NCBI GenBank assembly: GCA_029212785.1
Contig: JARGOG010000024.1
Coordinates: forward strand, 41-64,040
Length of the DNA: 64,000 nt
DNA from: Thalassobaculaceae bacterium
GTDB lineage: Bacteria; Pseudomonadota; Alphaproteobacteria; Thalassobaculales; Thalassobaculaceae
Direction: 5' to 3'
Position 1 is the first letter of the stretch, and every line of letters starts with the position of its first letter. The position numbers were made by a program, and so were the translations under genes. Below the pieces are notes generated by a model. That model did not search any database. It was not told the DNA's origin and saw only the letters and a program-made list of their open reading frames with translations. Positions 12,952 to 56,871 of this stretch are shown piece by piece.

Positions 12952-13062
12952 AGGACCGCTTGCGACGCTCGCGCCTACAATTCGATCGCTGCCGGCTCGT
13001 TGGCCGAAGCCCTCGATTCAACCACATCGTGAACTCACGGGATATACCAGGGGGAAACCACC

Positions 13063-13908: not shown

Positions 13909-13910
13909 CC

Positions 13911-15089: not shown

Positions 15090-15112
15090 ACGGACTGATT
15101 GGGGAGCGGGCC

Positions 15113-15862: not shown

Positions 15863-15877
15863 CGGCCCGATCGGGGC

Positions 15878-30148: not shown

Positions 30149-30282
30149 GCGCCCTCCTGTTCGTATGCGCGAACCTTGCCTTCGCCCGAAGCCCCGGTCG
30201 AGGAGAAAGCACCGAGCCGATCCCCTCTTGACTTCCAGACCCGCGGACGCCCGAGTCAGCCGGAAGAAAATGGAGCCACCCC

Positions 30283-39005: not shown

Positions 39006-39926
39006 CTACGTGCGGACCGTGGCGAGGATGCGCTCGGTCGACAGGCCGTGGGCCGCCAGGATGTCCTCGTGGCTGCCATAGCAGTGCACGAACTCGTCCT
39101 TCAGGGTGAAGGTGTGGAGATCGCATTCCGCGCGGATGTCCCAGGCGATCTGCTTGGTCTGCGGCGCCAGACCACCCTGCGGCGCGTGCTCCTCGACCAC
39201 GATCACCCGCTTATGGCGGCGCAGCAGATTGGCGATGCCCTCGGTGTCGAGCGGCTTCAAGGTGTGGCAGACCGCGAGCGAGACCGAGTTGCCGTCGGCG
39301 GTCAGCGCGTCGGCGACCTCGGCGGCCATCTTGGTCACCACCCCGTAGGACAGCACCGCCACGTCCTCGCCCTTGCGCAGGTAGCGCAGCTTGCCGAACT
39401 CCCACGGATCGCTGTCCGGGCCGGTCAGGGTCGGTTCGCCCGCCTTGCCGAAGCGGAAATAGACCGGTCCGCCGCCCTCACGATTGACCAGCCACTTGGT
39501 AGCCTCGGTCGCCTCGACCGGGTCGCAGGGCGCGATGATCGACATGTTCGGGATGGCGCCGGCGATGGCGATATCCTCCTGGGCGTAGTGCGTTCCGCCC
39601 AGGGTCGAGTAGATGACGCCACCACCGATGCCGACCACCGTCACCGGCAGATTCTGGTAGCCCAGATCATCGCGCACCATCTCGAACGGCCGGTACAGCG
39701 AGAAGGTGGCGATGGTGTAGGCGAAGGGCCGCATGCCCTTCAGCGCCAGACCGGCGCAGATGCCGATCATCGCCTGCTCGGCGACGCCGACGTTGATGAA
39801 GCGCTCGGGGAACTCCTCGCGGAACTTGCCCATGGAGCCGGCCGGCGAGATATCGGCGACCACGATGTGGATGCGCGGGTCGTCCTTGGCGAGATCGTAA
39901 AGGACTTCGGCGAAGGTGTTCCTCAC
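39006..39926 (-). CDS. Transketolase, C-terminal (pyrimidine-binding) subunit of a split enzyme
   Basis: 306 aa. FINVGVAEQAMIGICAGLAL and a later GGTHYAQEDIA pattern typical of split-transketolase B subunits. 4-nt overlap with the N-terminal subunit gene. Confidence 0.9.
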   Translation of the reverse strand: MRNTFAEVLYDLAKDDPRIHIVVADISPAGSMGKFREEFPERFINVGVAEQAMIGICAGLALKGMRPFAYTIATFSLYRPFEMVRDDLGYQNLPVTVVGIGGGVIYSTLGGTHYAQEDIAIAGAIPNMSIIAPCDPVEATEATKWLVNREGGGPVYFRFGKAGEPTLTGPDSDPWEFGKLRYLRKGEDVAVLSYGVVTKMAAEVADALTADGNSVSLAVCHTLKPLDTEGIANLLRRHKRVIVVEEHAPQGGLAPQTKQIAWDIRAECDLHTFTLKDEFVHCYGSHEDILAAHGLSTERILATVRT

Positions 39927-40756
39927 GACGCGATCTCCTTCAGCTCGGCCAGGGCCTGCTTGTATTCGTCCGGACTCGGCGAGCGGTAGTGCCAGATCGG
40001 CACGTTCTCCATATAGGAGACGCCCTTGCCCTTGGTGGTGCGGCCGATCAGGCAGAACGGCTTGCCGCCCTTGCGGCTGGCGACCGCGCTGTATACCGCA
40101 TCGGCATCATGGCCGTTGACGATCACCGTCTCCCAGCCGAACGCCTCGAGCTTCTCGTCCAGCGGATAGAAGCTCGGATGGGTCTCCGACGTGCGGCCGA
40201 GCGACTGGAAGTCATTATTGTCGATCAGCGCGACCAGGTTGGTAAGTCCGAGGGTGGAGGCCATCATGAAGGCCTCCCAGGTCGACCCCTCCTGCACCTC
40301 GCCGTCTGACAGCACGCAGTAGACCGCCCCCGCATCCGCGGCCCCGCCGGCCTTGTTGCGCTCGGCGACCGCCATGCCCACCGCCATCGCCATGCCGTGG
40401 CCGAGCGAGCCGGTCGACGCCTCGATGCCGGGATTGCCGTAGTCCGGATGGGCTCCGAGAATGCCGTGCGGCGTGCAGTACTCGTCCAGGTGCTTCTTCT
40501 CCAGGACGCCCCGGTCCTCCAGGATCACGTACTGCGCCATGCAGCCATGGCCCTTGGACATCAGGAACGTGTCCTGGCCGTCCGGGCGCATCAGGCCGTG
40601 ATAGCAGGTATCCGTCAGTTCCATGCAGGAGAACGCCCCGGCGGCATGGAGCGCGCTGACGTTCTGCGAGATGTCCAGGATCCGCTTGCGGTACTTCATG
40701 CAGCGCTTGCGGGAGTCCGTGGGATCGAAACTGTTGTGTCCGGGCTTGGCCGTCAT
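39923..40756 (-). CDS. Transketolase, N-terminal (ThDP-binding) subunit of a split enzyme
   Basis: 277 aa. GHGCMAQY, GSLGHGMAMAVGMA and the ThDP motif VLSDGEVQEGSTWEA...LIDNND. Confidence 0.9.
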   Translation of the reverse strand: MTAKPGHNSFDPTDSRKRCMKYRKRILDISQNVSALHAAGAFSCMELTDTCYHGLMRPDGQDTFLMSKGHGCMAQYVILEDRGVLEKKHLDEYCTPHGILGAHPDYGNPGIEASTGSLGHGMAMAVGMAVAERNKAGGAADAGAVYCVLSDGEVQEGSTWEAFMMASTLGLTNLVALIDNNDFQSLGRTSETHPSFYPLDEKLEAFGWETVIVNGHDADAVYSAVASRKGGKPFCLIGRTTKGKGVSYMENVPIWHYRSPSPDEYKQALAELKEIAS

Positions 40757-40775: not shown

Positions 40776-41438
40776 TCAGGAAATGAGCGTCCAGTTGTAG
40801 TCGCCGGTGTAACCGGCTTCCTCGAAGATCGCGACCCACTCGTGCGGGTAGCCGTGGGTATAGGCCGTCAACACCCAGTCGAGGAAGAGGTCGCGCGCCT
40901 CTTCGGTGCGGTAGCTGTCGACCTGGACATAGGCCTTGCCATCCTTGGTCACCCGCATGATCTCCTGCAGCGCCGTGATCAGTTCCGGCTTCTTCAGGTT
41001 GTGCAACGTATTGAGCGAGATGACCGCGTCGAAACTATTGTCCGGGAACGGCAACCTGACCGCAGATCCCAGGTGCAGCCGGCCGATCGCCTCCGGCTCG
41101 CAATGCTTGAGCGCGTATTCCGAGACATCCAGGCCGAACGCCTCCAGTCCCGGGCAGGCGATCATGAAGTCCTTCACCAGGAAGCCTTTGGCGGCGCCGA
41201 CATCCAGCACCCGCATGCCCGGCTCCAGGCCGAAATGCTCGATCATGTCCTTGGCGACCGGGACCCAGCGTCCGTCGTAGCGGTATCCGCCATAACCGTA
41301 TTCACGCGGGCCGTCGAAATAGGTCTCGCCGTATTCCCGGCTGATGCGGATGTGCTCGTCGGTCTTGGCGTGCTCGCGCGCTTTCACGTTGCGCTTCGGC
41401 TTCGGCAGCGCGTCGAGCAGATTGATCTCGCGACCCAT
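40776..41438 (-). CDS. Class I SAM-dependent methyltransferase
   Basis: Motif I VLDVGAAKGFLV, later FDAVISLNTLHN. 220 aa. Confidence 0.85.
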   Translation of the reverse strand: MGREINLLDALPKPKRNVKAREHAKTDEHIRISREYGETYFDGPREYGYGGYRYDGRWVPVAKDMIEHFGLEPGMRVLDVGAAKGFLVKDFMIACPGLEAFGLDVSEYALKHCEPEAIGRLHLGSAVRLPFPDNSFDAVISLNTLHNLKKPELITALQEIMRVTKDGKAYVQVDSYRTEEARDLFLDWVLTAYTHGYPHEWVAIFEEAGYTGDYNWTLIS

Positions 41439-41441
41439 GAG

Positions 41442-42323
41442 TCAGCCTCCGGTGGCTTGGCGGTGGACCTTGGCCAGGCCCTCGGCAAGGGGGGTATAGC
41501 GGAAATCGGGGAAGGCGTGAAAGGTGGCCGACGGGTTGAACGGCCGATAGCCGTTATGCGGCATCGCGCCGGAACGTGGCGTGCCCTTGATCATGATCCG
41601 AAGCGGGACATGACTGACCACCATCTCCGCCACCTCGCGGAACGAATGGACATCACCGGTCGCCCCGTTCAGCACACCGGTCGAGCGATGCATGACCATC
41701 AGCTTGATCAGTTCGCCCAGATCATCGACCAGAACGTGATCGCGCCGCTCCTCACCTTCGCCGAACAGGGTGATGTCCTTGCCGTCCATGGCCAAGCGAC
41801 GAAAGCGGTTCGGGCCGTAGCCGTTATGCGGGTCCGACGCGCCATAGACCAGGGTCGGACGCAGGATGCCGACCGGCACGCCACTCTCGTCCAGCAGCAT
41901 GCGCTCGCGTGCCAGATGCATCACCCCGTGCAGCCCCCCAGGCTCGGCGCAGTCGGTCTCGGCCAGCGGCTCCATCTTGTCCTTGTAGACCGCGTCCGAC
42001 GATATGTAGACGACATGGGCCACCGGCTGAGTCTTCAACGCCGCGACGACGGTGTTCATCATCGCGATGTTGCGCTCCAGCATTTCGCCGTTCTTGCACG
42101 GCGCTTCGGCGGAGACGACCACCAGCACGTCGTCGGCGCGCAGTTGCTCGGACAGAACAGCGGCGGCACCATCGGCCAGCAGATCTACCTGGGCCCGGCC
42201 GACCCGCTCAACCCGGCCGCCCGCCGCCTCGATCGCGTCCGCACCGGCACCGCCGACGAATCCGGCGCCGAGCACGACAGTGCAGGGCGGCAGGGCGGGT
42301 TTGGCGAGGCGATGGTCAAGCAT
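41442..42323 (-). CDS. Extended-SDR-like protein (epimerase/dehydratase fold) apparently lacking the YxxxK dyad
   Basis: Rossmann VVLGAGFVGGA and the SS..VY segment are present. At the position where the three sibling SDRs here have YGLSK/YALSK/YNKFK, this protein reads HGVMH (GGLHGVMHLARE). Confidence 0.75.
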   Translation of the reverse strand: MLDHRLAKPALPPCTVVLGAGFVGGAGADAIEAAGGRVERVGRAQVDLLADGAAAVLSEQLRADDVLVVVSAEAPCKNGEMLERNIAMMNTVVAALKTQPVAHVVYISSDAVYKDKMEPLAETDCAEPGGLHGVMHLARERMLLDESGVPVGILRPTLVYGASDPHNGYGPNRFRRLAMDGKDITLFGEGEERRDHVLVDDLGELIKLMVMHRSTGVLNGATGDVHSFREVAEMVVSHVPLRIMIKGTPRSGAMPHNGYRPFNPSATFHAFPDFRYTPLAEGLAKVHRQATGG

Positions 42324-42333
42324 GGCGATACTC

Positions 42334-43665
42334 CTAGTCCCGGGTGATCCCGAGGGTGATGTAGTCGAGACCAGCCGCCAGCGCGGCTTTCTCGTCGAGG
42401 ACCCGGTAAGGGTCGAGCACGACGGATCCGCGCATGGTGGCGGCGATGTCCTTCGGATCGAGCGCCTTATATGGGCTCCACGGCGTCATGATGCAGAGCA
42501 CGTCGGCCCCCGCCACCGCCGTCATCGGTCCGTCCGCCGCCGCGACCGCGACCGGCGCGGCGGACGCCGGGACCACCGGATCGTGGACCACGATGTCGAC
42601 ACCACCGAGCTCCGACAACAGGGCGAGCGAGGGCGAGTTCTTGGTCGAGTGGGTGTCCTGCTTGTAAGCGAGCCCGAGAACGGCCACCCGCGCCGCCGGG
42701 TTGGCGTCCAGCACCCGGGCCTTGAGCGTGCGCGCGGCCCAGCCCTTGCGCCAGGCGGAGTTCTCGACCCATGCCTTCACGATGCCGGTGTCGGTCTTAT
42801 GCGCCGCCCCCAGGCGCATCACCGTGGCGAGGTCGCGCTCCAGGTTGCCTCCGGCGAGTCCGAGCCCGGGAGCGAGGTAGCTGTACGCGCCGATCCGTCG
42901 GTCGAGCTTCAGGGCCGGCGCGATCTCCGACCAGTCGGCCCCGACATGCTCGCAGAGCTCGGCCATGGTGTTGGCCACACCAACCGAGGCGACGAGGCAC
43001 ATGTTGATCGAGATCTTGGCCAACTCCGCGCTCTCGTAGCGCATCGGCAGGATGGGGCAGCCGAACGCCTCGAGGTATGTGCGGAACGGCACCGGCAGCA
43101 CAGCTTCAGGATCGGCGCAGCCGACGATATAGCGCTCCGGCTCCAACGCGCGGTGCAAGGCAATGCCGAAGACCAAGGTCTCCACCTGATAATGCAGCGG
43201 GCCGCGCACGCCGACCTTGCCCTGGTCGATTCCGCGGGTGAAGCCCGGTGGCACCTGGCTCAGGATGACCAGAGTCGCATCGTCGCGCAGCGCCGGGGCA
43301 ACCACCGCCAGCAGACGTTCGACCGCAGAGAGGTCGCTGGCACCGGTGTCGTCGGTGGGCACGTCCGGCGCGAGGTAGACCACGTCGGCCCGTGCCAGAT
43401 CTCTGGTCTCCTCGGTGACGGTGATGCGGTGCCGGTTGGTGGCGAAGGTCTCGGCGAGATCGGGCTCGGAGACCGGCAGTTCCACCCCTTGCAGCCGTCC
43501 GACCAACTCCTTGCCACGCAGACGGGCGATCAGATCGACATCCGGATCGAACAGGATCGTGTCAAACCCCTTGGCCGCCGCCGCCGTACCGGAGACGAGG
43601 CCAAGATGAGTCATGCCGCAATAGGCAATGACGGGGCTGGGCTCGATGGAAGCGGCAGGGGTCAT
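42334..43665 (-). CDS. UDP-glucose/GDP-mannose dehydrogenase family protein, apparently Cys-less variant
   Basis: Family-typical DRRIGAYSYLAPGLGLAGGNLERDL and VLGLAYKQDTHSTKNSP segments. The GG-C-x-x-KD catalytic segment reads GGNLERD, so Asn replaces Cys. Confidence 0.8.
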   Translation of the reverse strand: MTPAASIEPSPVIAYCGMTHLGLVSGTAAAAKGFDTILFDPDVDLIARLRGKELVGRLQGVELPVSEPDLAETFATNRHRITVTEETRDLARADVVYLAPDVPTDDTGASDLSAVERLLAVVAPALRDDATLVILSQVPPGFTRGIDQGKVGVRGPLHYQVETLVFGIALHRALEPERYIVGCADPEAVLPVPFRTYLEAFGCPILPMRYESAELAKISINMCLVASVGVANTMAELCEHVGADWSEIAPALKLDRRIGAYSYLAPGLGLAGGNLERDLATVMRLGAAHKTDTGIVKAWVENSAWRKGWAARTLKARVLDANPAARVAVLGLAYKQDTHSTKNSPSLALLSELGGVDIVVHDPVVPASAAPVAVAAADGPMTAVAGADVLCIMTPWSPYKALDPKDIAATMRGSVVLDPYRVLDEKAALAAGLDYITLGITRD

Positions 43666-44606
43666 GCGGGTGCTCCGAACCGGTCATAGGCCTGACGCGC
43701 GAGGCCGCGCAAGGTGCGGTTCAGCCAGAGATCATTATCGATTTCCGAACCGGATCCGGTCTCGCAGAGCCGGCGGAAATGGGCGTACTCGGCTTCCCAG
43801 GTCGGGTCGGCCTGGACCAGGGTCACCGACTCCTCCGGCGGTCGGCCGGACGGCAGGACGCGGGTCCGCCTGGTGAAGGTGCTCGGCCCCCATTTGCACA
43901 GGGACTCGATATGGGCGGTCCCGTTCTCGGCCAGCACGTCGCAGGTGAAATGGTTGCGCCAGGACAGCAGCGTCATCTCGAGCTGCACGGTCGGACCGCT
44001 CTCGGGATCGGCGGCGATCATCACCTGATCGAAGGCCCTGTTCTCGTGCCGCCGCGCCACCCGGGTCTCGAATTCCCAGTTGCCCGCGTCGGGGATCCAG
44101 AACTTCAGCGTGTCGAGCAGGTGCGAGCCAAGGTCTGGCAGAACGCCGGCCTCCTGGTCGCGCCAGGCGCTGTCGCGCACCAGCCGCGCCGTTCCGTTGC
44201 CGTAGAACATGCGTAGGCTGTAGATCCGGCCGAGTTCGCCCGAGTGGATCAGGTCGCGCATCCGAACGTAATGCGGCTCGAACCGGTGATTATACGCGGT
44301 GACGCAGACCGCTCCGGTGGAGCGCGCCACCTCGGACAGCTCCTCCAGCACCCAGTCGTCCTCGGCCACCAGCGGCTTTTCGACCAGCACGTGCTTGCCC
44401 GCCCCGAGAAGGGTCTTCAGCAGTGCCGGCTTCGGCGCATCCGGCGTGCAGACGATGGCCGCATCAAATGCGTGGAAGGCGACCTCGGAGAGGTCCTTGT
44501 AGTCGGCTTCATTGGAGATCGGATCGACCACGGCGACACAGTCCGCGCCGGCGACAGCCTTGCGCTTGTGCCCCTGCACTCCGTAGCCGATGACGATGAC
44601 CCGCAT
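43662..44606 (-). CDS. Gfo/Idh/MocA family oxidoreductase
   Basis: MRVIVIGYGVQG Rossmann start, VLVEKP motif, 314 aa. Confidence 0.85.
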   Translation of the reverse strand: MRVIVIGYGVQGHKRKAVAGADCVAVVDPISNEADYKDLSEVAFHAFDAAIVCTPDAPKPALLKTLLGAGKHVLVEKPLVAEDDWVLEELSEVARSTGAVCVTAYNHRFEPHYVRMRDLIHSGELGRIYSLRMFYGNGTARLVRDSAWRDQEAGVLPDLGSHLLDTLKFWIPDAGNWEFETRVARRHENRAFDQVMIAADPESGPTVQLEMTLLSWRNHFTCDVLAENGTAHIESLCKWGPSTFTRRTRVLPSGRPPEESVTLVQADPTWEAEYAHFRRLCETGSGSEIDNDLWLNRTLRGLARQAYDRFGAPA

Positions 44607-44630: not shown

Positions 44631-46172
44631 TCAGTCCTGGAACCGGGCGCGCCGCTCGTAGGTCTCGATCTTCTTCAGCACCATCGCCGGCTCGACCGGG
44701 ATATTGCCGTCCATCTCGCACTCCGCCGCCGCCGCCATGGCGCCCAGGATCGAGGCGACCACTTCATCGCCGGTCGCCTTCAACACCAGGGTCGCATAGG
44801 ACAGCAACGCGTCGCCGGAGCCGACCGCGTCGATCACATGGTCGGCGAAGCTGTCGAGACCGAAGAAGGTGCGCAGCTCGCCGCCACCCTCTCGGAAGGT
44901 CATCGATCCGCGCGAACCGAGCTTGAGGATCAGCACCTTGCACTTCGCCTCCTCGAACAGGCGGGTGCCCAAAGGCCGGATCACCGTGTCCTGATCGCCC
45001 AGCGAGAACCGGGCTTCCTTCTCGTTCGGCGTGATCAGGTCGAAGCCGCCGAAATCGAGGATGTTGCCCCAGCGGCTGGCGACCTGACTGTCCGCCACCT
45101 TGAAGGTGTCTTCCGGGATCGCGTTGGTCAGAATCGGAATGCTCTCGCCACTGAATATGCCGTGGCGGAAATCGCTGAACACCACCGCGTCGGACGGCGT
45201 CTCCTTGATCGCGCGAACGATGCGCTTGGTGATCTGCTCGGAGATGCCGCGGTTATCGAGCGTATCGATCTTCAGCATCCGATAGCCGCCGGCGACGATC
45301 GCGTTCTTGTTGATGGTCGGGCGGGTGTCGTCGACGATGTCGTTCAGGTGGATGCCGGACTTGGCGATGTCGTCGCGCACGAATTTCGCCAGCGCATCCT
45401 TGCCCAGAACGGTGGTGAAGGTGACATCCGCCCCCGCCGCTTCCAGGTGCTTGGCGACGATGCCGGCGCCGCCGACATAGTCCCGCTTGCCTTCGTAGCG
45501 CACGCTCAAAGTCGGGGTCTTGCCGCTGGCGCCGATCATCGAGGTGATGGTGAGCGAGTCGACGATGGTGTCGCCGATCACGTGAACCTTCATCCCCTTC
45601 ACGGCCTTCAGCGCGTTCTTCAGATCGTCGAAGGTCCGCTTCTCCCCCTCAAGCAGGTTCATCAGCTTCTCGACGGCGATGTCCGGCGGTCCGGACTCGA
45701 TGATCGCCGAGGACGAGTAGACGATGTCGCCGGGAGTGAAGATCACCTCGCCGCCATAGCTCTCGACAGCGGCCTTTTCCTCGGCCGTACGCGGGTGCAG
45801 CCCGCCACGCTGGTACTCGTAGCCCTTCACGAAATAGTCGGGCTTGATCGTCAGGATGTTCTCGATCGGCGTCGGGTTCGGATCGATGGTGACGTAGTCG
45901 ACCGTCTCCAGGGCGGCCAGATTCAGCGCCCGCAGGTTCTCCGGCACGAAGGGCCGATGGTCGGCCTTCTTCACATGGGTGTCCGCGGTCACACCGACGA
46001 CCAGCTTCGCCCCTTTGGAACGGGCATAGACCAGGTGGCGGATATGTCCCGGATGCACCAGATCGAAGGTGCCGTGGCACATCACGATCTTCTCGTCGCG
46101 CGGCGGATCGCCGAGCAACTCCGCCAATTCGGCCGCGGTCTTGATTTTATGCTTATAGGCGTCGTCGATCAC
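44631..46172 (-). CDS. Bifunctional sugar-1-phosphate nucleotidyltransferase (cytidylyltransferase fold) / PfkB-family sugar kinase; HldE-like with inverted domain order
   Basis: N-terminal HIGH-type motif VMCHGTFDLVHPGHIRHL (RfaE domain II-like). C-terminal ribokinase-like domain with VHVIGDTIVD and DAVGSGDA (RfaE domain I-like). Confidence 0.85.
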   Translation of the reverse strand: MIDDAYKHKIKTAAELAELLGDPPRDEKIVMCHGTFDLVHPGHIRHLVYARSKGAKLVVGVTADTHVKKADHRPFVPENLRALNLAALETVDYVTIDPNPTPIENILTIKPDYFVKGYEYQRGGLHPRTAEEKAAVESYGGEVIFTPGDIVYSSSAIIESGPPDIAVEKLMNLLEGEKRTFDDLKNALKAVKGMKVHVIGDTIVDSLTITSMIGASGKTPTLSVRYEGKRDYVGGAGIVAKHLEAAGADVTFTTVLGKDALAKFVRDDIAKSGIHLNDIVDDTRPTINKNAIVAGGYRMLKIDTLDNRGISEQITKRIVRAIKETPSDAVVFSDFRHGIFSGESIPILTNAIPEDTFKVADSQVASRWGNILDFGGFDLITPNEKEARFSLGDQDTVIRPLGTRLFEEAKCKVLILKLGSRGSMTFREGGGELRTFFGLDSFADHVIDAVGSGDALLSYATLVLKATGDEVVASILGAMAAAAECEMDGNIPVEPAMVLKKIETYERRARFQD

Positions 46173-46183
46173 CGCGCCGCTCC

Positions 46184-47200
46184 TTATGCCGTCGCGTTCT
46201 TCTTATCGTCACCCAGATAGTCGAACCACGTCTTGGTCGCCTGGGCGATGCTATCGGGTGTCCAAAGCGGCGCCTCGCGCCAATAGTCGAGCTGCGCCAG
46301 CATACGGCCCACCCCTTCCTCGAAAGAGACTTCCTGCTTCCATCCCAGATCGCGGGTGATCTTGGAGATGTCGGCGAAGGTGCAGTCCGGCTCGCCCGGC
46401 CGCTTGGGGATGTTGACGTACTCGCTCTCGAGCAGGCCGACCAGCTTGTTGACCGACTGCGGATCCCCCGCACCCAGGTTCCAGATCTCGCCCACCTTGT
46501 CGGTCTCCGCCGCCGCCAGAAAGGCGCGGGCGACGTCGGTGACGAACAGGAAGTCGCGACTCTGGGTGCCGTCGCCGACCACGGTGAGCGGCTGGCCGGC
46601 GATCTTTTGGCGCAGGAAAACGCCGAATACCGCCCCGTAGGCGCCCGAGGTGCGTGAACGGGTGCCATAGGCATTGAAGATGCGCACCGAGTTGACCGGC
46701 AGGCCGTAGACCTTGTGCCAATGGAAGGCCGCCTGCTCGCCCTGATATTTCGAGAGCGCGTAAGGATGCTCCGGCATGATCGGGTGGTCTTCGCGGGTCG
46801 GCACGTCGGCGAGGCCGTAGCAGGACGACGAGGCGGCGTAGACGAATCTCTTCACTCCCGCCGTCCGCGCCGCGTCCAGCACGCAGGCGGTGCCCTGCGC
46901 ATTGACCGACATGTACTCCAGCGGCCGTTCGATCGACGGCACGATGTCGCCGATACCGGCGAAGTGGACCACCGTCTTGGCGCCGACAAAGGCCGCGTCG
47001 TCGGGCTTGATGTCGCGAATGTCGCGGAAGTCGCGGATCAGGTCCTGGTTCTCGCCGTGATGGGCAAGGTTGAGCTCGCGCCCACCGGTCAGGTTGTCGA
47101 TCGCCCGCACCCGGTAGCCCCGCTCCAGCATGAGATCGACCATGTGGGAGCCGATGAAACCGGCGCCGCCGGTGACGATGGCATAGGGCTTGTCGGTCAT
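46184..47200 (-). CDS. NAD-dependent epimerase/dehydratase (extended SDR)
   Basis: Trimmed to ATG 47198-47200 (MTDKPYAIVTGGAGFIGSH). Catalytic YALSK. The listed longer ORF overlaps the transaldolase gene. Confidence 0.9.
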   Translation of the reverse strand: MTDKPYAIVTGGAGFIGSHMVDLMLERGYRVRAIDNLTGGRELNLAHHGENQDLIRDFRDIRDIKPDDAAFVGAKTVVHFAGIGDIVPSIERPLEYMSVNAQGTACVLDAARTAGVKRFVYAASSSCYGLADVPTREDHPIMPEHPYALSKYQGEQAAFHWHKVYGLPVNSVRIFNAYGTRSRTSGAYGAVFGVFLRQKIAGQPLTVVGDGTQSRDFLFVTDVARAFLAAAETDKVGEIWNLGAGDPQSVNKLVGLLESEYVNIPKRPGEPDCTFADISKITRDLGWKQEVSFEEGVGRMLAQLDYWREAPLWTPDSIAQATKTWFDYLGDDKKNATA

Positions 47201-47217
47201 GGCGCGCGTCCGTGCGG

Positions 47218-47946
47218 TCAGGTGGCGATGGTGAAGCCGGCGGCCGAGGCATCGCCTTCGAACATCTTCACCGTCTCCAGACTGAACTGGTCGAGATCCT
47301 TGCCGAGGCCGCCAAGCTTGCCCAGCAGGTCGTTGGTCACGGTGATGATGTGACAGCCCATCTCGTCGGCCTGCACGATGTTCAGCAGCTCGCGCGGGCT
47401 GGCCCAGAGCAGTTCCGCCTTCGGATGGTCCTTGAGGATCGCCAGGCATTCCTTCATGAGCGGGATCGGGTCGCGGCCGGTATCGGCGATGCGGCCGGCG
47501 AAGACCGAGATGATCGCCGGGGTCGCCGGGTCGAGCGCATCGGCGATCGCTTTCACCTGGCCCGGGGTCATGATCGCGGTGATGTTCAGCACCACGCCGT
47601 CCTTGGACAGGGTCGAGATCGGCTCGCCCATGAAGGTGCCCTTGGTGTTGGTCACCGGAATCTTCACATTGACGTTCGGACCCCAGCTGCCGATCACCCT
47701 GGCCTGGGCAATCATCGACGCCGCGTCATCGGCGAAGACCTCGAAGGAGACCGGCTTGTCGGTGATTGCCGAGAGCACCTGCTTGGCGAAAGCGGCATAG
47801 TCGGTCACGCCGGCCTTGCGCATGAGCGTCGGGTTGGTGGTCAGCCCCTGGATATAGGGCTTCGCCGCCATCGTTTTCATACCCTCGAGATCGGCGCCAT
47901 CGGCGAAGATCTTGATCTTGAGGTCGTCGACAGAACTCACGCTCAT
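47218..47946 (-). CDS. Transaldolase family protein (short TalC/FSA-like type)
   Basis: Trimmed to ATG 47944-47946 (MSVSSVDDLKIKIFADGAD). GLTTNPTLM and Schiff-base lysine context NVNVKIPVT. Confidence 0.85.
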   Translation of the reverse strand: MSVSSVDDLKIKIFADGADLEGMKTMAAKPYIQGLTTNPTLMRKAGVTDYAAFAKQVLSAITDKPVSFEVFADDAASMIAQARVIGSWGPNVNVKIPVTNTKGTFMGEPISTLSKDGVVLNITAIMTPGQVKAIADALDPATPAIISVFAGRIADTGRDPIPLMKECLAILKDHPKAELLWASPRELLNIVQADEMGCHIITVTNDLLGKLGGLGKDLDQFSLETVKMFEGDASAAGFTIAT

Positions 47947-48016
47947 GCTGTCCTCCAGCGGGTCCGGGCGTAGGCGACGCCCATCGAATTGTGACGCGCG
48001 ATCGCGCCGAGCCAAA

Positions 48017-48559
48017 TTATGCGCTCTCTCGCGCTACGATCAGACGGGCCGCCTCCGCGACGTCGGAGACCGTGAAATCGGGGACTTCACGTTCCGGTTC
48101 GGCGTAACCGCGTTCGATCAGAATCGTCGTGCAGCCCGCCGCCCGGCCGGCACCGATGTCGCGCCAGCGATCCCCGATCATGTAACTCGCCTGGAGGTCG
48201 AGGTCGAGGTCGCGCGCTGCGTCGAGCAGCATTCCGGGCGCCGGCTTGCGGCAACCGCAGCCTGCTCCCGAGTCGTGGGGACAGATCCGGATATCATCAA
48301 GGGGCATGTCGGCACCGAGCCTGGCGTGCATCGCCTCCATCGTGGCCGAATCGACGTTCCCGCGGGCCAGTTCCGGCTGGTTCGTCGTCAGGACGGTGAC
48401 GAACCCGGCGGCCTTCAGGGCCCGGACCGCGTCCGGCGCCTCTGCAAGGATCTCGAAATCGTCCAACTTGAGCGCCGCATAGGGTTTGCCGTCCCGGACA
48501 TCGGTGCGGACCAGGACGCCATCACGGTCGAGGAACACGGCCTTGCGCTTCGTCGTCAC
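48017..48559 (-). CDS. gmhB: D-glycero-D-manno-heptose 1,7-bisphosphate phosphatase-like HAD-IIIA phosphatase
   Basis: AVFLDRDGVL, TNQ, zinc-finger-like insert CPHDSGAGCGCRKPAPGML, and GDRWRD. Confidence 0.85.
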   Translation of the reverse strand: MTTKRKAVFLDRDGVLVRTDVRDGKPYAALKLDDFEILAEAPDAVRALKAAGFVTVLTTNQPELARGNVDSATMEAMHARLGADMPLDDIRICPHDSGAGCGCRKPAPGMLLDAARDLDLDLQASYMIGDRWRDIGAGRAAGCTTILIERGYAEPEREVPDFTVSDVAEAARLIVARESA

Positions 48560-48583
48560 GCCCTTTTCCTCGCACCCCTGCCC

Positions 48584-49186
48584 TCAAGCGCGGGCGAGGC
48601 CCTCCCATTTGTTGGCCTTGGCCATCAGGTTCGGATGACAGACCAGGCCGTGCCAGATCACCGCCTGGAAAGCTTCGGAATGCGGCGTGATGTGGTTGGC
48701 ATCCACCACCGGCACGACCATCACATGATCGCCGACCTGCTTGGTATAGCCGCCGTCGCGGCCGACGACGCCGAGGATCTTCAGGCCGTGCTGCTTGGCG
48801 TATTCCAGCGCCAGCACGAGATTGGGGCTGACATTGCGCTCGCGCGAGCCACCGCCGACGGAGAACACCAGAACCGCATCGTTGGCACCGGCTTTGGAAA
48901 CTTCGAGCCAGCCGGCGAACACGCTCTCCCAGCCCTCGTCGTTGGTCCGGGCGGTCAACTCGGCCACATTGTCGGTCGGCGCATAGGCCTCGATGGCGCA
49001 GAGTTTGCGGAAGTCGTTCACCGCGTGGCCGCAGTTCGCCGCCGAGCCGCCGACGCCGAGAATGAACAGCCGCCCGCCCCGTGCCCGCAGATCGACGAGG
49101 GCCGCGACCATCGCCTCCATTTCGGCAGGGTCGAGGCTGCGGCAGATCTCCGCCGCCTGGGCGAGATAGGTCTCGGCGTGGGACAT
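48584..49186 (-). CDS. gmhA: SIS-domain phosphoheptose isomerase-like protein
   Basis: RLFILGVGGSAANCGHAVNDF and VFSVGGGS SIS motifs. 200 aa. Adjacent to gmhB. Confidence 0.8.
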   Translation of the reverse strand: MSHAETYLAQAAEICRSLDPAEMEAMVAALVDLRARGGRLFILGVGGSAANCGHAVNDFRKLCAIEAYAPTDNVAELTARTNDEGWESVFAGWLEVSKAGANDAVLVFSVGGGSRERNVSPNLVLALEYAKQHGLKILGVVGRDGGYTKQVGDHVMVVPVVDANHITPHSEAFQAVIWHGLVCHPNLMAKANKWEGLARA

Positions 49187-49226: not shown

Positions 49227-50243
49227 TCAGGCGGCAGTCAGCTTCTGCATGGTCTTGACGTTGAAATAGCGATCGTCCGACATCGAGTTCGGCAGCTTGC
49301 CATCGCGGAACGCCGTGACCAGGCCGCGCACCGCGTCCTCGACCGTCAGCTGCGGCGCGAAGCCGACCGTGTTGCGGATCTTGTCCGAGTTGACGTGGTA
49401 GGAGCGGATATCGTCGGTCGGCGTGGTGACGATGTCGATCGGCGCCTTCTCCGGCATTTCCTCCTCGACGACCTTCTTTACGACATTGGCGATCTCGGAG
49501 ATCGCCATATTCTGGTAGCCGGCGTTGAAGGTCTGGCCATTGATCTTGTCGGCATCGTAGCCCAGCAGTTCGACATAGAGCCGGCAGACGTCTTCGACAT
49601 GGATGTTCGGGCGCAGCTGGCTACCGCCGAACACGGTGATCTTGCCATTGTTGACCGCGTGGTTGGTCAGGATGTTGACCGACAGGTCGAGACGCATGCG
49701 GGGCGCATAGCCGCAGACCGTCGCCGGGCGGATGGTCACCGCGACGAAATCGTCGTCATTGTGCTTCCACAGCAGCGGCTCGCACATGCCCTTGAACTTA
49801 TTGTAGTCGGTCAGCGGGACCAGCGGATGGTCCTCGGTGACGTCGGGGGCATCGGACACGCCGTAGACCGAGCTGGTCGACGCGTAGACGAAGCGCTTCA
49901 CGCCGGCCTTCTTGGCGGCGACGACCATCGGTTCGAAACAGTCGTAGTTGATCGACTTCGACAGGTTCGGATCGAGCACGAAGGACGGGTCGTTGGAAAT
50001 GCAGGCGAGGTGGATCACCGCATCGCAGCCGGCCACCGCCCGCGCGAAGGACTCGGTATCGCGCAGGTCGCCCTTGACCGAATGCAGCTTCGGATTAGCC
50101 AGCGGCAGGTTGTCGTCGCCGAAATACTGGATGTCGAAGACAACGACCTCGTAGCCCGCATCGAGGAGCTTCGGTGTCAGCATGGAGCCGACATAGCCGG
50201 CGCCGCCGGTCACGAGAACGCGCTTGATGGTCTTTTCGGTCAT
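49227..50243 (-). CDS. NAD-dependent epimerase/dehydratase (extended SDR)
   Basis: Trimmed to ATG 50241-50243 (MTEKTIKRVLVTGGAGYVGS). Catalytic YNKFK. Confidence 0.9.
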   Translation of the reverse strand: MTEKTIKRVLVTGGAGYVGSMLTPKLLDAGYEVVVFDIQYFGDDNLPLANPKLHSVKGDLRDTESFARAVAGCDAVIHLACISNDPSFVLDPNLSKSINYDCFEPMVVAAKKAGVKRFVYASTSSVYGVSDAPDVTEDHPLVPLTDYNKFKGMCEPLLWKHNDDDFVAVTIRPATVCGYAPRMRLDLSVNILTNHAVNNGKITVFGGSQLRPNIHVEDVCRLYVELLGYDADKINGQTFNAGYQNMAISEIANVVKKVVEEEMPEKAPIDIVTTPTDDIRSYHVNSDKIRNTVGFAPQLTVEDAVRGLVTAFRDGKLPNSMSDDRYFNVKTMQKLTAA

Positions 50244-51756: not shown

Positions 51757-53220
51757 TCAGTTCGCGCGAAACCCGATTGCACGATCGGTCGCGTCAGCCA
51801 CCACGTTTGACCAATCGCCACCCTTCTGACGCAGCACTGTCAGCGACGGATACCACGGCACCGTCTCGCCCTCGGCGAACCAGAACCACAGCGGATCACG
51901 CTGCATCAACACCAGCCCGGGCACGCCGAGCGCCCCGGCCAGATGCGCTGCCACGCTCGATATAGTGACGATCCTGTCGAATGCAGCAATCTGCGCCGTC
52001 AAATCATCAAGCGCGTCGCGAATATCTTCGGCCGGGTTGTCGACCGGCACCGGAAGCCCGCGCGCCCGCAGCTCGGCGATCTCCTCCGGGTCCGGGTCAT
52101 ATTGCAGGCTGACGACAGTGCCACCCAGGGCGGACATCACCGGAGCCAACATCTCCAACGGGATCGACTTACGCCCGCCGGTGCGCCGGTTCCCGCTGCG
52201 CCAGCAGAGCCCGGTATAGGGTCCGGGTCCAAGAGCCGCCAGGCGCTCGCGCCAGGACGTCACACGCTCCGGGTCCGGTATCAGATAGGGTGCCGACGGC
52301 GCGTATCCGGGCCTGCCGGGGCCGAAGAGCACGGGCAGCCGCGGTAACGCGCTCTGCGCCGCCGCGCCCCTGACCAGAGCGGCGGCCGGAGGATCACTCC
52401 GCGCGACGACGGTGATATCCGGGAACGATCGCCCGAACAGCGGCACGAGCCGGGGATCAGCCTCCAGCATGACGGGGCCACCGGCCCGCAGCACCGCCGT
52501 CGAAACTAGACCCGCGAAAAGGATCTCGTCGCCGACCCCGAACTGAGCGGTCAATGCCAGATGGCCACCGGCGATCGGCTCCCCGTTCCACAACGGCGCG
52601 TCGATCAGATGTGCCCGGGCGTCCGGATCGGGATCGCGCCAGCGCGCGTCGTAATCGTCGTAGCCGGACCAGTTCCGTCGGGCGAGCCGCATCCAGCCCC
52701 GGGCGTAGCGGGCGCGGGTTTCGGTCGGATCGCGGGCAATCACATCGTCCAGCCGCGCTTCGGCGTCCTCCCGCCGACCGAGCTCGATTTCGCTCAGTGC
52801 CAGGTTCACCGAAGCGTCGACATCGCTCGGGTCGGCCGCTGCGGCCCGCGCGAACAACTCCCGCGCGACGGCGGCGCGGCCCTGTTTCTGCAGGCGCCCT
52901 CCCATCATCTTGGTGGGAAGCGCGCGACCGGGGTCCACACAGGCCAGCCACGACCAGCGCGGATCTTCCAGGACCGGTGACAGTCCAGCCGCGAGGTCCA
53001 GGACGGCCGCGGCCGCCGGTGCGATGGCCAGGGCCCGCCGCACGGCGATCAGGGCGTCGTGGCCGCCCTTGATCTGGGCCCGTGCAAGGTTCGCCCAAAC
53101 CCGCATGTCTTCGGGATGCAGGTCAGCGACCGACGCCAGTGCCTCCATCGCCGTCTTCCAGTCGCCGGCGGCAATGGCCGCCCGCGCCCGGGCTTCCAAC
53201 GTCGCCAGCGCGGTGCTCAT
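51757..53220 (-). CDS. TPR-repeat protein fused to a GT9-like (heptosyltransferase-fold) glycosyltransferase domain (copy 1)
   Basis: N-terminal ~200 aa of TPR-like helices. The C-terminal half carries GT9-like motifs (QFGVGDEILF; RIVTISSVAAHLAGALGVPGLVL). Confidence 0.8.
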   Translation of the reverse strand: MSTALATLEARARAAIAAGDWKTAMEALASVADLHPEDMRVWANLARAQIKGGHDALIAVRRALAIAPAAAAVLDLAAGLSPVLEDPRWSWLACVDPGRALPTKMMGGRLQKQGRAAVARELFARAAAADPSDVDASVNLALSEIELGRREDAEARLDDVIARDPTETRARYARGWMRLARRNWSGYDDYDARWRDPDPDARAHLIDAPLWNGEPIAGGHLALTAQFGVGDEILFAGLVSTAVLRAGGPVMLEADPRLVPLFGRSFPDITVVARSDPPAAALVRGAAAQSALPRLPVLFGPGRPGYAPSAPYLIPDPERVTSWRERLAALGPGPYTGLCWRSGNRRTGGRKSIPLEMLAPVMSALGGTVVSLQYDPDPEEIAELRARGLPVPVDNPAEDIRDALDDLTAQIAAFDRIVTISSVAAHLAGALGVPGLVLMQRDPLWFWFAEGETVPWYPSLTVLRQKGGDWSNVVADATDRAIGFRAN

Positions 53221-54521
53221 TCCACCGTCGGCCGTGTACCGGGCACCGGCGTTTCCGGTGGCGCGCCGGGAAAGCCGTCAGCCTGCGCCGTGGAGGCGAA
53301 ACTCGGCAGGTTCCGCGTCCTCACCCGGTCGATCAGCTCCAGGTGCTGCGGAAGGCAGACCGTCTCCAGATCATAGGTCTTGACCGCGAAGTCGCGCGCG
53401 GCGGCGCCCAGCCGGGCTCGACGGGCCGGATCGTCGAGCAGGTCGCAGATCCGCGCGCACAACGCCTGGTGGTCAAAGAAGTCGACCAGAACCCCGGTCT
53501 CGTCGTCGACGATGGCCTCCTTCAACGGCGGCGTATTGGACGCGACGATCGTGCAGCCGACCGACATGGATTCCAACAATGACCAGGACAGGACGAACGG
53601 GAAGGTCAGGTACATGTGCACGCGGCTGACCTGAAGAATCTGCAGATAGTGCGAGTACGGCACACGGCCCATGAAATGCACTCTGTCCGGGTCGAAGCTG
53701 ACCTCCGCCTGCATCTTTTCACGCCAACTCGGATAGTCGGAAGGCTTCGAGCCGTAGCTGGTATCGTCGCCACCGACGACGACGATCTGAGCATGCGGGC
53801 GCGCCTTCTGAATCAGCGGCAGCGCCTTCATGAACACGTCGAAGCCGCGATACCGTTCCAGATTCCGCGCGAGATAGGTCACCACCTCGTCATTTCGGGT
53901 CAGTACGGTGCCGTCCGGCATCGGGACCTGAACGGCGGCATTGGGCACGCAGACATTGGTCCGCACGCCGTCATGGATGATCGAGGTTCTTGACTGATAG
54001 GCGGCCGGGATCTGCTGCCATTGGAACCGTGTCGGCGTGATGTTCCAATCAGCCTCTTCCATCGACATGAGGAGATGGACATTCCGCATCCGCGTTCGAC
54101 AAAGCCGGTCGATATCGACCTCTTCACCGCCGAAGCCGACATCCGCGCCGGTGCCGTGATAGTAATACTCGGCGAAGTTCAGAACCGGAACATCCGGGTA
54201 CACGTCCTTCAGAAACAGACCTTCGCCCCAGCCCGAATGCACGCAGATGATATCGGGAACGAAGCCTTCCTCCTTCAGGCCGAGGCAGCTTCTAACAACC
54301 GCCTGACCGTACAACAGGTGTTCGTCGAGATTGCGCACATAGCGATGGGAGTCGGTTCGCGGCTCGCGCTGCAGGTCGTATCGGACCTTGCGGACACCGG
54401 GGATCTCGAGCTTCGGCCGTCGGGTGACGAACACGACCTCATTCTTCGGATCTTTGGCCAGATACTGGATCAGATGCGCGTATTGCGCCGGCATGTTCTG
54501 ATGAACAAACAAGAATCGCAC
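53217..54521 (-). CDS. Glycosyltransferase family 4 (GT-B, group 1)
   Basis: MRFLFVHQN start. C-terminal E-x7-E region: SWSLLESMSVGCTIVASNTPPLKEAI. Confidence 0.9.
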   Translation of the reverse strand: MRFLFVHQNMPAQYAHLIQYLAKDPKNEVVFVTRRPKLEIPGVRKVRYDLQREPRTDSHRYVRNLDEHLLYGQAVVRSCLGLKEEGFVPDIICVHSGWGEGLFLKDVYPDVPVLNFAEYYYHGTGADVGFGGEEVDIDRLCRTRMRNVHLLMSMEEADWNITPTRFQWQQIPAAYQSRTSIIHDGVRTNVCVPNAAVQVPMPDGTVLTRNDEVVTYLARNLERYRGFDVFMKALPLIQKARPHAQIVVVGGDDTSYGSKPSDYPSWREKMQAEVSFDPDRVHFMGRVPYSHYLQILQVSRVHMYLTFPFVLSWSLLESMSVGCTIVASNTPPLKEAIVDDETGVLVDFFDHQALCARICDLLDDPARRARLGAAARDFAVKTYDLETVCLPQHLELIDRVRTRNLPSFASTAQADGFPGAPPETPVPGTRPTVE

Positions 54522-54607
54522 GTCGCGCGCTCCGCATTCCCTGGATACCGGGGGGTTGCTTACAACCTAGCCCCTAGCGATGCAAACGGCAGAGCGGTTG
54601 GCGGTCC

Positions 54608-55888
54608 TCAAGACTTGTGGTCCGCCAATAATTCATCCCGCCACGCCGTGAGCCTGTCGACAATACGCGGCATGAAATCGTCCCATTCCTCGACCAGCTC
54701 GCGACGTTCCAAGCGCGTGTTCGGATACCAGCCGGTGGTCGCTCCGTTCTGCCCCCAGCGCCAGTCGGCGACCCAGTGAAGCAGCACCCAGCACGGTCGG
54801 TCCAGCGCCCCGGCAATATGCGCGACCGCGCTGTCGACCGTAATCACCAGATCAAGCTGGTCGATCAACCCCGCCGTATCGGCGAAATCATCGATATGGT
54901 CGCTGAGGCTGACGACGCGCGCATCCTGCTCGGCGTCCGCCGCGCCCTGACCGACCTGCAACGTGTAGAAGTCGATACCTTCGACATCGAAGAGCATTGC
55001 CATGGCGCTGAAGGGGCAGCTGCGCTGCTGATCGCGCTGGTGATTCGGGTTGCCGGCCCAACATACGCCAACCCGGGGCCGTCCTGGCGATACCGGAAGC
55101 CGGAACGGGTGCTCCGGTGGGTCGATATATCGACCCGGCGCCGGGAGCGACTCGGCGCGGGTTCCGAACCTGAACGGCAGGCTCATGATCATTTCGGCGG
55201 CATCCGCCATATTCGGTTTGATCCGGGTGACGGCATGCTTGACGCCTCGGGCCGCTCCGAGCAGTCGGGCGAGCGGCGGGGTGCAATAGACGATCACCTC
55301 GATCCCCGCCCGGCTCAGATCCGCCGCGTACCGCACGAACTGCACCGCGTCTCCCGCCCCCTGCTCGATCACGCAGACTACCGAAGAAGCGGATGACGGA
55401 TCGCCGTCCCACGCCGCCACGCCGTGATTGCCCAATTCCTCGAGCGCCTTCCAACGTGACCAGCGGCGCTCGTAAACCGCGAGCCCCTCCTCGTAGTTGC
55501 CGACAGTCAGAAGCTGCAACGCCGCAGCGACATCGATTCCGAAGTCGTTCGGCCGTGCGATCTGCGCCCGGCGGAACAGCTTGAGCGCCACTTCGTGGTT
55601 CCCGCGCATCCGGTTGGTGTTGCCGTGGTTGACCAGAAGCTCGGCCGACCCCGGCTCGATCAGCGCAACCAGTCTCATGTAATGGAGGGCACCGGTCACA
55701 TCGCCCAGGCGCGCCGACACCATCGCATGCTGATTCCAACCGCGCGGATCCATCGGCCGCGCGGATATAACCTTCCGCGCCCAGGCTTTCGCCAAGGTCA
55801 GCTTGCCGGACTCGATCAGTTGGGGGATGAGACGCAGCGCCTGATCGTAATCAAGGTCTCTTGAGGGAGAATCAGGTGTTTCCGCCAT
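54608..55888 (-). CDS. TPR-repeat / GT9-like glycosyltransferase fusion (copy 2)
   Basis: Trimmed to ATG 55886-55888 (MAETPDSPSRDLDYDQ), 4 nt after the upstream stop. GT9-like motifs EQGAGDAVQF and LVITVDSAVAHIAGALDRPCWVLL. Confidence 0.8.
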   Translation of the reverse strand: MAETPDSPSRDLDYDQALRLIPQLIESGKLTLAKAWARKVISARPMDPRGWNQHAMVSARLGDVTGALHYMRLVALIEPGSAELLVNHGNTNRMRGNHEVALKLFRRAQIARPNDFGIDVAAALQLLTVGNYEEGLAVYERRWSRWKALEELGNHGVAAWDGDPSSASSVVCVIEQGAGDAVQFVRYAADLSRAGIEVIVYCTPPLARLLGAARGVKHAVTRIKPNMADAAEMIMSLPFRFGTRAESLPAPGRYIDPPEHPFRLPVSPGRPRVGVCWAGNPNHQRDQQRSCPFSAMAMLFDVEGIDFYTLQVGQGAADAEQDARVVSLSDHIDDFADTAGLIDQLDLVITVDSAVAHIAGALDRPCWVLLHWVADWRWGQNGATTGWYPNTRLERRELVEEWDDFMPRIVDRLTAWRDELLADHKS

Positions 55889-55892
55889 CGGT

Positions 55893-56867: not shown

Positions 56868-56871
56868 GCGA

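Follow-up and report, generated by a model that had tools for sequence, protein, structure and literature searches.

A putative transaldolase-centred sugar-nucleotide cassette in a Thalassobaculaceae bacterium and its relation to heptose and lincosamide octose activation

What is a transaldolase doing among enzymes that resemble those of heptose activation? This question is raised by a 64,000-nucleotide stretch of contig JARGOG010000024.1 from a Thalassobaculaceae bacterium (assembly GCA_029212785.1), referred to here as the window, in which a gene for a short transaldolase (Tal) lies between those for a SIS ketose-phosphate isomerase and a HAD-IIIA phosphatase on one side and those for an extended short-chain dehydrogenase/reductase (SDR) and a fused nucleotidyltransferase (NT)-PfkB kinase on the other. 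A preliminary description of the window reported these five genes as consecutive, and family searches bear this out: all five lie on the minus strand, the coordinates it gave for four of them are correct, and the extended SDR that it left unplaced is SDR2 of Table 1. Our comparisons suggest that the window carries one member of a widespread, uncharacterized sugar-nucleotide cassette in which Tal would catalyze the first committed step. We lean, with a little more confidence than doubt, towards an octose-type product, probably activated as a nucleoside diphosphate (NDP) sugar in the manner of the lincomycin (Lmb) pathway.

Conservation of the transaldolase core

One genome per species was scanned with an alignment of Tal relatives, and the best 80 of 592 confirmed stretches, all at least 60% identical, were kept. 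These derive from Alpha-, Beta- and Gammaproteobacteria, Acidobacteriota, Nitrospirota, Elusimicrobia, Cyanobacteria, Chloroflexota, Planctomycetota, Bacteroidota, Myxococcota and Gemmatimonadota. The counts that follow refer to the 50 loci flanked on each side by 6 kb or more, in which the proteins of the window and of a second type of cassette were compared by tblastn. Cassette-type SIS and/or HAD proteins stand beside Tal in 43 of the 50 loci, and both do so in 37. An activation module is present in 43 of the 50 loci, as an NT-PfkB fusion in 32 (type A) or as a GHMP kinase with an NTP_transferase in 11 (type B); these two modules are non-homologous and never occur together. Tal is the most conserved member of this Tal-SIS-HAD core, which travels with a kinase and an NT. 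In relatives, the genes called for HAD and for Tal have a few bases in common, and an all-representatives HMMER search together with a word-index search retrieved HAD-Tal fusion proteins (P0280, P0363, P0366, P0376 and P0379), a Tal-SIS fusion bearing the HAVNDFRK motif discussed below (P0370) and a SIS-Tal fusion (P0377), the fusions falling in several distinct sequence clusters. Taken together, conservation, alternative partners and fusions indicate that Tal works with the isomerase and the phosphatase and is a dedicated pathway enzyme, and the contention of the preliminary description that it is no stray gene of central metabolism is upheld.

A housekeeping pentose-phosphate transaldolase that merely came to rest in a polysaccharide locus would be the simplest alternative, and the public annotation of such proteins as 'transaldolase, pentose-phosphate shunt' speaks for it. 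The adjacency of Tal, SIS and HAD nevertheless goes far beyond chance: dozens of genomes, spanning more than ten phyla, show it. With the overlapping HAD and Tal frames and the gene fusions, this makes a coincidental neighbor very hard to credit. The remainder of the 64-kb window consists of general metabolism genes, with no pentose-phosphate gene and no second tal among them. In two further proteins, P0398 and P0487, Tal is preceded by an unrelated N-terminal domain of ~190 aa that looks GIY-YIG-like by eye.

The catalytic identity of Tal can be judged with some assurance. The protein scores 337.7 bits against the short, 'staph-type' transaldolase model TIGR02134 (cut-off 281.95) and 145 against Pfam TAL_FSA (vs 27). 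Its catalytic set is complete (D16, N38, E69, K95, T123, F149 and R152), aligns with the motifs of Thermoplasma TacTal (3s0c) and T. maritima Tal (1vpx) and is invariant across 18 relatives; the roles of these residues are known from the TacTal and TalB literature. Because the TIGR02134 cut-off is passed and the catalytic residues are both aligned and invariant, we regard the protein, on its sequence, as a genuine transaldolase. An enzyme of the fructose 6-phosphate aldolase (FSA) type, using free dihydroxyacetone, would be the alternative to which weak matches to the FSA model TIGR00875 (90, cut-off 246) might point. In FSA enzymes, however, the catalytic Glu is replaced by Gln and the Phe by Tyr, whereas the motifs VSFEVF and SVFAGR of Tal retain Glu69 and Phe149, which, with the transaldolase cut-off passed, leaves this alternative highly improbable. 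In a neighbor-joining tree of Tal the two cassette types are intermixed in a star-like radiation, the resolution of which is too low for module swaps to be dated. A Tal 50% identical to that of the window occurs in a non-cassette context on plasmid p3211-1 of Streptomyces sp. 3211 (12468-16427), between a D-arabinono-1,4-lactone oxidase and a hexitol phosphatase (HxpB), with an MFS transporter adjacent and transposases around.

Two cassette types and the lincosamide pathway

The type B locus of a Methylococcales genome reads, by Pfam, as an epimerase-SDR, a protein of the UDP-glucose/GDP-mannose-dehydrogenase (UGDH) family, a short-chain SDR, a Gfo/Idh/MocA oxidoreductase, a GHMP kinase, an NTP_transferase, SIS, HAD and Tal. 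Plasmid 3 of Lawsonia intracellularis (NC_008014.1, 8937-33638) has this set too, under names that are generic in the public annotation ('transaldolase, pentose-phosphate shunt', 'SIS domain-containing protein', 'HAD-IIIA family hydrolase', 'galactokinase'). An actinobacterial version, found in Mycobacterium sp. 4858 and Rugosimonospora africana, comprises a family 2 glycosyltransferase (GT2), a methyltransferase, SIS, an SDR, HAD, Tal, a second methyltransferase, GHMP and NTP_transferase. The cassette of Lawsonia, a pig pathogen, is flanked by two paralogous hypothetical proteins of ~1,090 aa with 40% mutual identity, and the two actinobacterial cassettes adjoin a different, mutually homologous protein of ~1,070-1,090 aa.

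In lincomycin biosynthesis, LmbM is an epimerase, LmbL a dehydrogenase, LmbZ an NAD(P) oxidoreductase, LmbP a kinase, LmbO a nucleotidyltransferase, LmbN an isomerase, LmbK a phosphatase and LmbR a transaldolase (PMC4351081 Table 2; PMC12945683 Table 1), and the S. lincolnensis genes are contiguous in the order lmbR-S-O-P-Z-N-M-L (PMC7014725). LmbR combines ribose 5-phosphate with a C3 unit from fructose 6-phosphate (F6P) or sedoheptulose 7-phosphate (S7P) to give octulose 8-phosphate (PMC7014725, PMC5854111), a type of reaction of which other transaldolases are also capable (PMC5854111, PMC7014725). Going by the functions listed in these papers, type B appears to match the Lmb set function for function. 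The likeness of the window cassette to the lincosamide octose pathway of S. lincolnensis and S. caelestis comprises the same five core activities, with Tal first and the genes contiguous. It may extend to the tailoring enzymes, for which the pathway has an epimerase (LmbM), a dehydrogenase (LmbL) and an NAD(P) oxidoreductase (LmbZ/CcbZ) and the window conserved SDRs, a Gfo/Idh/MocA protein and a Cys-less UGDH-family protein. The type B relatives also share the kinase and NT families of the pathway, LmbP presumably being a GHMP kinase and LmbO an NTP_transferase.

The interpretation given in the preliminary description is partly sustained, and the parallel with lincomycin that it drew is stronger than it could tell: all five activities are encoded within 44631-49186, and a sister type has the GHMP kinase and NTP_transferase. 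The kinase and NT of the window belong to different families (PfkB and CTP_transf_like). Type A retains the Tal-SIS-HAD core and the pair formed by the Gfo/Idh/MocA and UGDH-like proteins, which in the window lies directly downstream of NT-PfkB, and has an HldE-like fusion of reversed domain order in place of GHMP and NTP_transferase. This alternation may be seen as a mirror of the two solutions used in heptose activation, HldE and HddA/HddC. Within type A the Gfo protein occurs in all 32 loci, the UGDH-like protein in 31, the methyltransferase in 25 and a split transketolase in 15.

The UGDH-like protein of the window falls short of TIGR03026 (179.2, cut-off 189.8). The catalytic Cys of the family is absent in 48 of 48 orthologues: all 40 of type A have Asn at its position and all 8 of type B have Thr, while TviB-like paralogues in the same loci, including that of the window, retain GGHC. 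Because the catalytic Cys is missing in every orthologue examined, the partner, as far as its sequence tells, cannot perform the ordinary two-step oxidation to a uronic acid. Its character fits a non-canonical role, for example one analogous to the side-chain dehydration by LmbL/LmbZ. The window differs from the lincosamide pathway in having no aminotransferase, in its extra SDRs, methyltransferase and thiamine diphosphate (ThDP) enzyme, and in a context of glycosyltransferases and type I secretion genes rather than an antibiotic cluster.

Heptose-like enzymes and the predicted product

How far are the activation enzymes removed from those of heptose biosynthesis? The window SIS scores 55 against the GmhA model TIGR00441 (cut-off 209.45) and at most 38 against other GmhA models, whose cut-offs are at least 265. 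Its signature HAVNDFRK places an Asp where the solved GmhA structures have a Glu, the catalytic and zinc-binding residue of GmhA, and this Asp is at least 97% conserved among 68 cassette SIS proteins. Cassette SIS proteins are 50-60% identical to one another from Alphaproteobacteria to Lawsonia and Mycobacterium, compared with 25-32% to a GmhA-like SIS, and by sequence they form a family and clade of their own. The phosphatase is similarly below the GmhB models (NF006506, 126 vs 178; TIGR00213, 88.9 vs 149.6). In the fusion protein the NT domain is N-terminal (residues 26-159) and the kinase domain C-terminal (189-496), opposite to HldE, and the scores against the HldE models are 150.5/521 (NF008454), 122/345 (TIGR02198, kinase) and 104/181.5 (TIGR02199, NT). 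The type B enzymes score 186/600 for HddA, 90/300 for HddC, 49/209 for GmhA and 117/178 for GmhB, and the top match of the type B NT is MurU, not HddC. By curated thresholds, the activation enzymes are paralogues of heptose enzymes and not equivalogs, the phosphatase, with its GmhB-type zinc loop, less plainly so than the others.

Comparison with the two heptose pathways bears on the same point. The window shares with the ADP-L-glycero-beta-D-manno-heptose pathway (GmhA/HldE/GmhB/HldD) the folds of isomerase, kinase, phosphatase and NT, the fusion of kinase and NT and the GmhB-type zinc loop of the phosphatase. It is unlike that pathway in that its components all lie well below the curated cut-offs, the fusion order is reversed, cassette SIS proteins have Asp for the GmhA Glu, Tal is an obligatory neighbor and none of the window SDRs reaches the HldD equivalog score. 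Type B resembles the GDP-D-glycero-alpha-D-manno-heptose pathway of capsules and S-layer glycans (GmhA/HddA/GmhB/HddC) in its GHMP kinase and NTP_transferase, for which HddA and HddC are the best or near-best curated matches, but its scores are far lower, Tal and the cassette-type SIS and HAD are always present, and the window itself uses NT-PfkB rather than a GHMP kinase and NTP_transferase.

A modified heptose is the chief competitor of an octose. On this account Tal, with the split transketolase where present, would raise the supply of S7P from hexose phosphates, and SIS, kinase, HAD and NT would make up a diverged form of the ADP-heptose pathway, with later tailoring of the product. Several observations lend it weight and count against the octose-type product. 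The closest characterized relatives of every activation enzyme are heptose enzymes, those at the top for the four being GmhA, HldE, GmhB and HddA, and the solved structures nearest to the cassette proteins are those of ordinary GmhA, GmhB, HldA-type kinase and short Tal; structure comparisons found no solved structure of any cassette-type protein. No feature of the Tal sequence, as we read it, singles Tal out as unusual: it has the canonical catalytic set and passes the same model, TIGR02134, as the Staphylococcus aureus-type Tal, to which it is ~48% identical. Tal and transketolase, both present in the window, could together convert two F6P to S7P and xylulose 5-phosphate. A cyanobacterial locus (L062) has a cassette-type HAD-Tal pair beside proteins that are more GmhB- and GmhA-like.

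Further points weigh on the same side through the lincosamide comparison. The window kinase and NT are of other families than LmbP and LmbO, being of HldE type and thus probably giving a beta, ADP- or CDP-linked product as opposed to an alpha, GDP-linked one. LmbL probably belongs to the UGDH family and LmbZ to the Gfo family, but the papers say only 'dehydrogenase' and 'NAD(P)-dependent oxidoreductase'. Neither searching from the Tal of Streptomyces sp. 3211, nor the all-representatives HMMER search, nor cluster look-ups turned up an Lmb or Ccb sequence, and the likeness is drawn at the level of function. Moreover, 7 of the 50 loci lack a recognizable kinase/NT module, and the Gfo/UGDH-like pair is absent in 7 of the 11 type B loci.

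Other evidence, however, argues against S7P supply. All four activation enzymes are far under the heptose equivalog cut-offs, and the cassette SIS forms a clade apart, marked by a signature not shared with GmhA. The staphylococcal enzyme is taken as one of the pentose-phosphate pathway; cassette Tals (at least 60% identical to the window Tal, from many phyla) nearly always adjoin SIS and HAD, and in several lineages Tal is fused to one or the other. The split transketolase occurs in fewer than half of type A loci and in 0 of the 11 of type B, and in at least six other type A loci it is replaced by ThDP subunits of the E1 alpha/beta type, which are incapable of the pentose-phosphate reaction; a transketolase that is optional and has an E1-type replacement speaks for C2 being transferred to the sugar and not for pentose-phosphate flux. 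To our knowledge, canonical heptose loci for lipopolysaccharide, capsule or S-layer never include a transaldolase. Mycobacteria, among which the cassette occurs, are known to have a housekeeping tal in a tkt-tal-zwf operon. On these grounds we hold the S7P-supply explanation to be possible though rather unlikely. The cyanobacterial locus itself (Cyanobacteria bacterium LVE1205-1, 9373-14483) is a hybrid: HAD and Tal of cassette type are followed by an NT-PfkB fusion in the reversed order, and after this come another HAD, which scores above the cut-off of the GmhB subfamily, and a SIS closer to GmhA. It thus has two phosphatases and no cassette-type SIS.

For the octose-type product that we favor, a route can be proposed in which every step is inferred from family assignments. 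With F6P or S7P as donor, Tal would pass a dihydroxyacetone (C3) unit to an aldose phosphate, most likely a pentose 5-phosphate, to yield an octulose 8-phosphate as LmbR does. The cassette SIS would convert the ketose phosphate to an aldose phosphate, the PfkB domain would phosphorylate it at O-1, the HAD-IIIA phosphatase would remove the terminal phosphate, and the N-terminal NT domain would form an NDP-sugar that, by analogy with HldE, is probably ADP- or CDP-linked and beta. The Gfo/Idh/MocA and Cys-less UGDH-like proteins may then act on the side chain, perhaps through a 6,8-dehydration as with LmbZ/LmbL, and the three SDRs, the methyltransferase and the ThDP enzyme would serve further tailoring. 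SDR2 is more likely an epimerase or oxidoreductase because the Asp-Glu dehydratase dyad is absent. Finally, the TPR and glycosyltransferase proteins encoded upstream could transfer the sugar to a surface or secreted acceptor. The same dedicated cassette might instead operate with another Tal acceptor (hexose 6-phosphate, arabinose 5-phosphate, or a deoxy or amino aldose phosphate) and lead to a C9 or differently configured C8 sugar, given that transaldolases and transketolases accept varied aldose phosphates (PMC5854111) and that tailoring sets vary widely among cassette types. Nothing positive points to any specific acceptor of this kind, however, and the sole characterized precedent for the gene set uses ribose 5-phosphate; we deem this variant improbable.

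A bolder extension of the octose-type reading, which we offer as speculation and consider doubtful as a whole, is that the cassette family is a widespread route to cell-surface sugars of eight or more carbons, that type A makes the first ADP- or CDP-activated beta-octose, that the ThDP module, whether of transketolase or E1 type, branches or extends this octose by a C2 unit into a sugar of the C10 class, and that TPR-glycosyltransferases place the sugar on a surface polymer or a type-I-secreted protein. A known C10 sugar is bradyrhizose, in the O-antigen of photosynthetic Bradyrhizobium, for which an 11-gene sugar-enzyme cluster is implicated (PMC4743980). A link to it is unsupported: the published gdh-primer peptides DAFLPYK and DMSLRTYF occur in none of the cassette SDRs, and a search seeded with Tal from a Bradyrhizobium metagenome-assembled genome returned no photosynthetic strain. 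Erwiniose, caryophyllose and yersiniose follow a different logic, with YerE-type ThDP enzymes acting on a CDP-3,6-dideoxy-4-keto-hexose (PMC9306805), and were likewise set aside.

In the library searched, we found no Tal-SIS-HAD (Tal-GmhA-GmhB-type) cassette described outside the lincosamides. What appears new here is a logic of Lmb type in the context of glycoconjugates, coupled with a reversed fusion that resembles HldE, and its wide distribution, which suggests that many bacteria make uncharacterized large surface sugars. If the product is indeed an octose-type NDP-sugar, chemistry linked so far to lincosamides would be common in the envelope glycans of environmental bacteria and of some host-associated ones, such as Lawsonia intracellularis and Mycobacterium spp., new nucleotide sugars would be predicted and genes with generic annotations would gain a function. 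A Tal beside a HAVNDFRK-bearing SIS and a Cys-less UGDH-like protein would then serve as a search signature.

Gene array and genomic setting

With a G+C content of 62-69% in the window, third-position G+C marks a single long, co-directional array on the minus strand that extends over 23 kb, from ~60011 to 36865 (Table 1). From SDR1 to the TviB-like gene the intergenic gaps range from -4 to +70 nt. An open reading frame of 333 aa at 46251-47252 (-), which overlaps the SDR2 gene, is spurious because it lies in a different frame and has no family match; spurious long reading frames are typical of high-G+C DNA. A near-identical locus is present in a Thalassobaculaceae metagenome-assembled genome (GCA_040218035.1), and the nearest Tal homologues carry the names Thalassobaculum or Thalassobaculaceae. 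Neither promoters nor terminators turned up in scans of the two array ends, the sequencing runs that cover the region are all DNA with no RNA run among them, and an exact-sequence look-up of the window Tal returned no record.

Table 1. Features of the minus-strand gene array, in nucleotide positions of the window
Feature	Coordinates	Strand	Remarks
SIS ketose-phosphate isomerase, distant GmhA paralogue	48584..49186	-	Pfam SIS_2; top NCBIfam match GmhA; C-terminal TPHSEAFQAVIWH
HAD-IIIA phosphatase, GmhB-like paralogue	48017..48559	-	DxD motif (DRDG); GmhB-type Zn loop CPHDSGAGCGC (CxHx6CxC)
Transaldolase (Tal), short 'staph-type' TIGR02134	47218..47946	-	242 aa; NVKIPVT lysine context
SDR2, extended SDR	46184..47200	-	338 aa; start MTDKPYAIVTGGAGFIGSH; YxxxK 'YALSK'; 64-74% identity in most type A loci
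NT-PfkB fusion, sugar-1-phosphate nucleotidyltransferase and PfkB sugar-phosphate kinase	44631..46172	-	CTP_transf_like, HxGH 'HPGH'; kinase 'DAVGSGDA'
SDR1, extended SDR	49227..50243	-	338 aa; between Tal and SDR2 in most relatives
Gfo/Idh/MocA oxidoreductase	43662..44606	-	EKP motif; stop overlaps start of next gene by 4 nt
UGDH-like protein, UDP-glucose/GDP-mannose-dehydrogenase family	42334..43665	-	AGGNLERD for GGxC, without catalytic Cys
SDR3, atypical Epimerase-family	41442..42323	-	family match
Class I SAM methyltransferase	40776..41438	-	family match
Split ThDP enzyme, transketolase-like N subunit	39923-40756	-	accessory module
Split ThDP enzyme, transketolase-like C subunit	39006-39926	-	accessory module
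RmlD-like SDR	38148-39002	-	distal array end
TviB-like NDP-sugar 6-dehydrogenase	36865-38151	-	distal array end; catalytic Cys kept
LIC12192-family protein, TIGR04323	50398-50862	-	'sporadic carbohydrate cluster' family; 8-nt overlap with TIGR04324 gene
2OG-Fe(II) oxygenase, TIGR04324	50855-51679	-	'sporadic carbohydrate cluster' family
Tetratricopeptide repeat (TPR) protein	51757-53220	-	upstream, co-directional
Family 4 glycosyltransferase (GT4)	53217-54521	-	upstream, co-directional
TPR-like protein	~54608-55900	-	upstream, co-directional
Family 1 glycosyltransferase (GT1)	55893-56867	-	upstream, co-directional
HlyD-type membrane fusion protein	56872-58254	-	upstream, co-directional
Type I secretion ABC protein	58254-60011	-	upstream, co-directional

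The proteins encoded at 51757-60011, for type I secretion, glycosyl transfer (two glycosyltransferases) and TPR repeats, probably use or export the product, and only in the Thalassobaculum lineage do such genes stand ahead of the cassette. The TIGR04323/TIGR04324 pair belongs to the 'sporadic carbohydrate cluster' families, reportedly defined by Haft; among the fetched loci it occurs only in those of the Thalassobaculum lineage and in one other (L077), and we regard the pair as lineage-specific accessories. A gene for an RTX-repeat protein of 320 aa lies at 27109-28071 (-), ~9 kb downstream of the array. The upstream genes and the RTX protein together suggest that a type-I-secreted protein is glycosylated or anchored, or that the glycan is exported. 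Divergent from the array, a gene for Glf, UDP-galactopyranose mutase, at 60909-62129 (+) hints at galactofuranose in the same glycan. The window also encodes, at 28592-30499 (-), a protein of the MttB family (trimethylamine methyltransferase-like; Pfam 648 bits), which is unrelated to the cassette.

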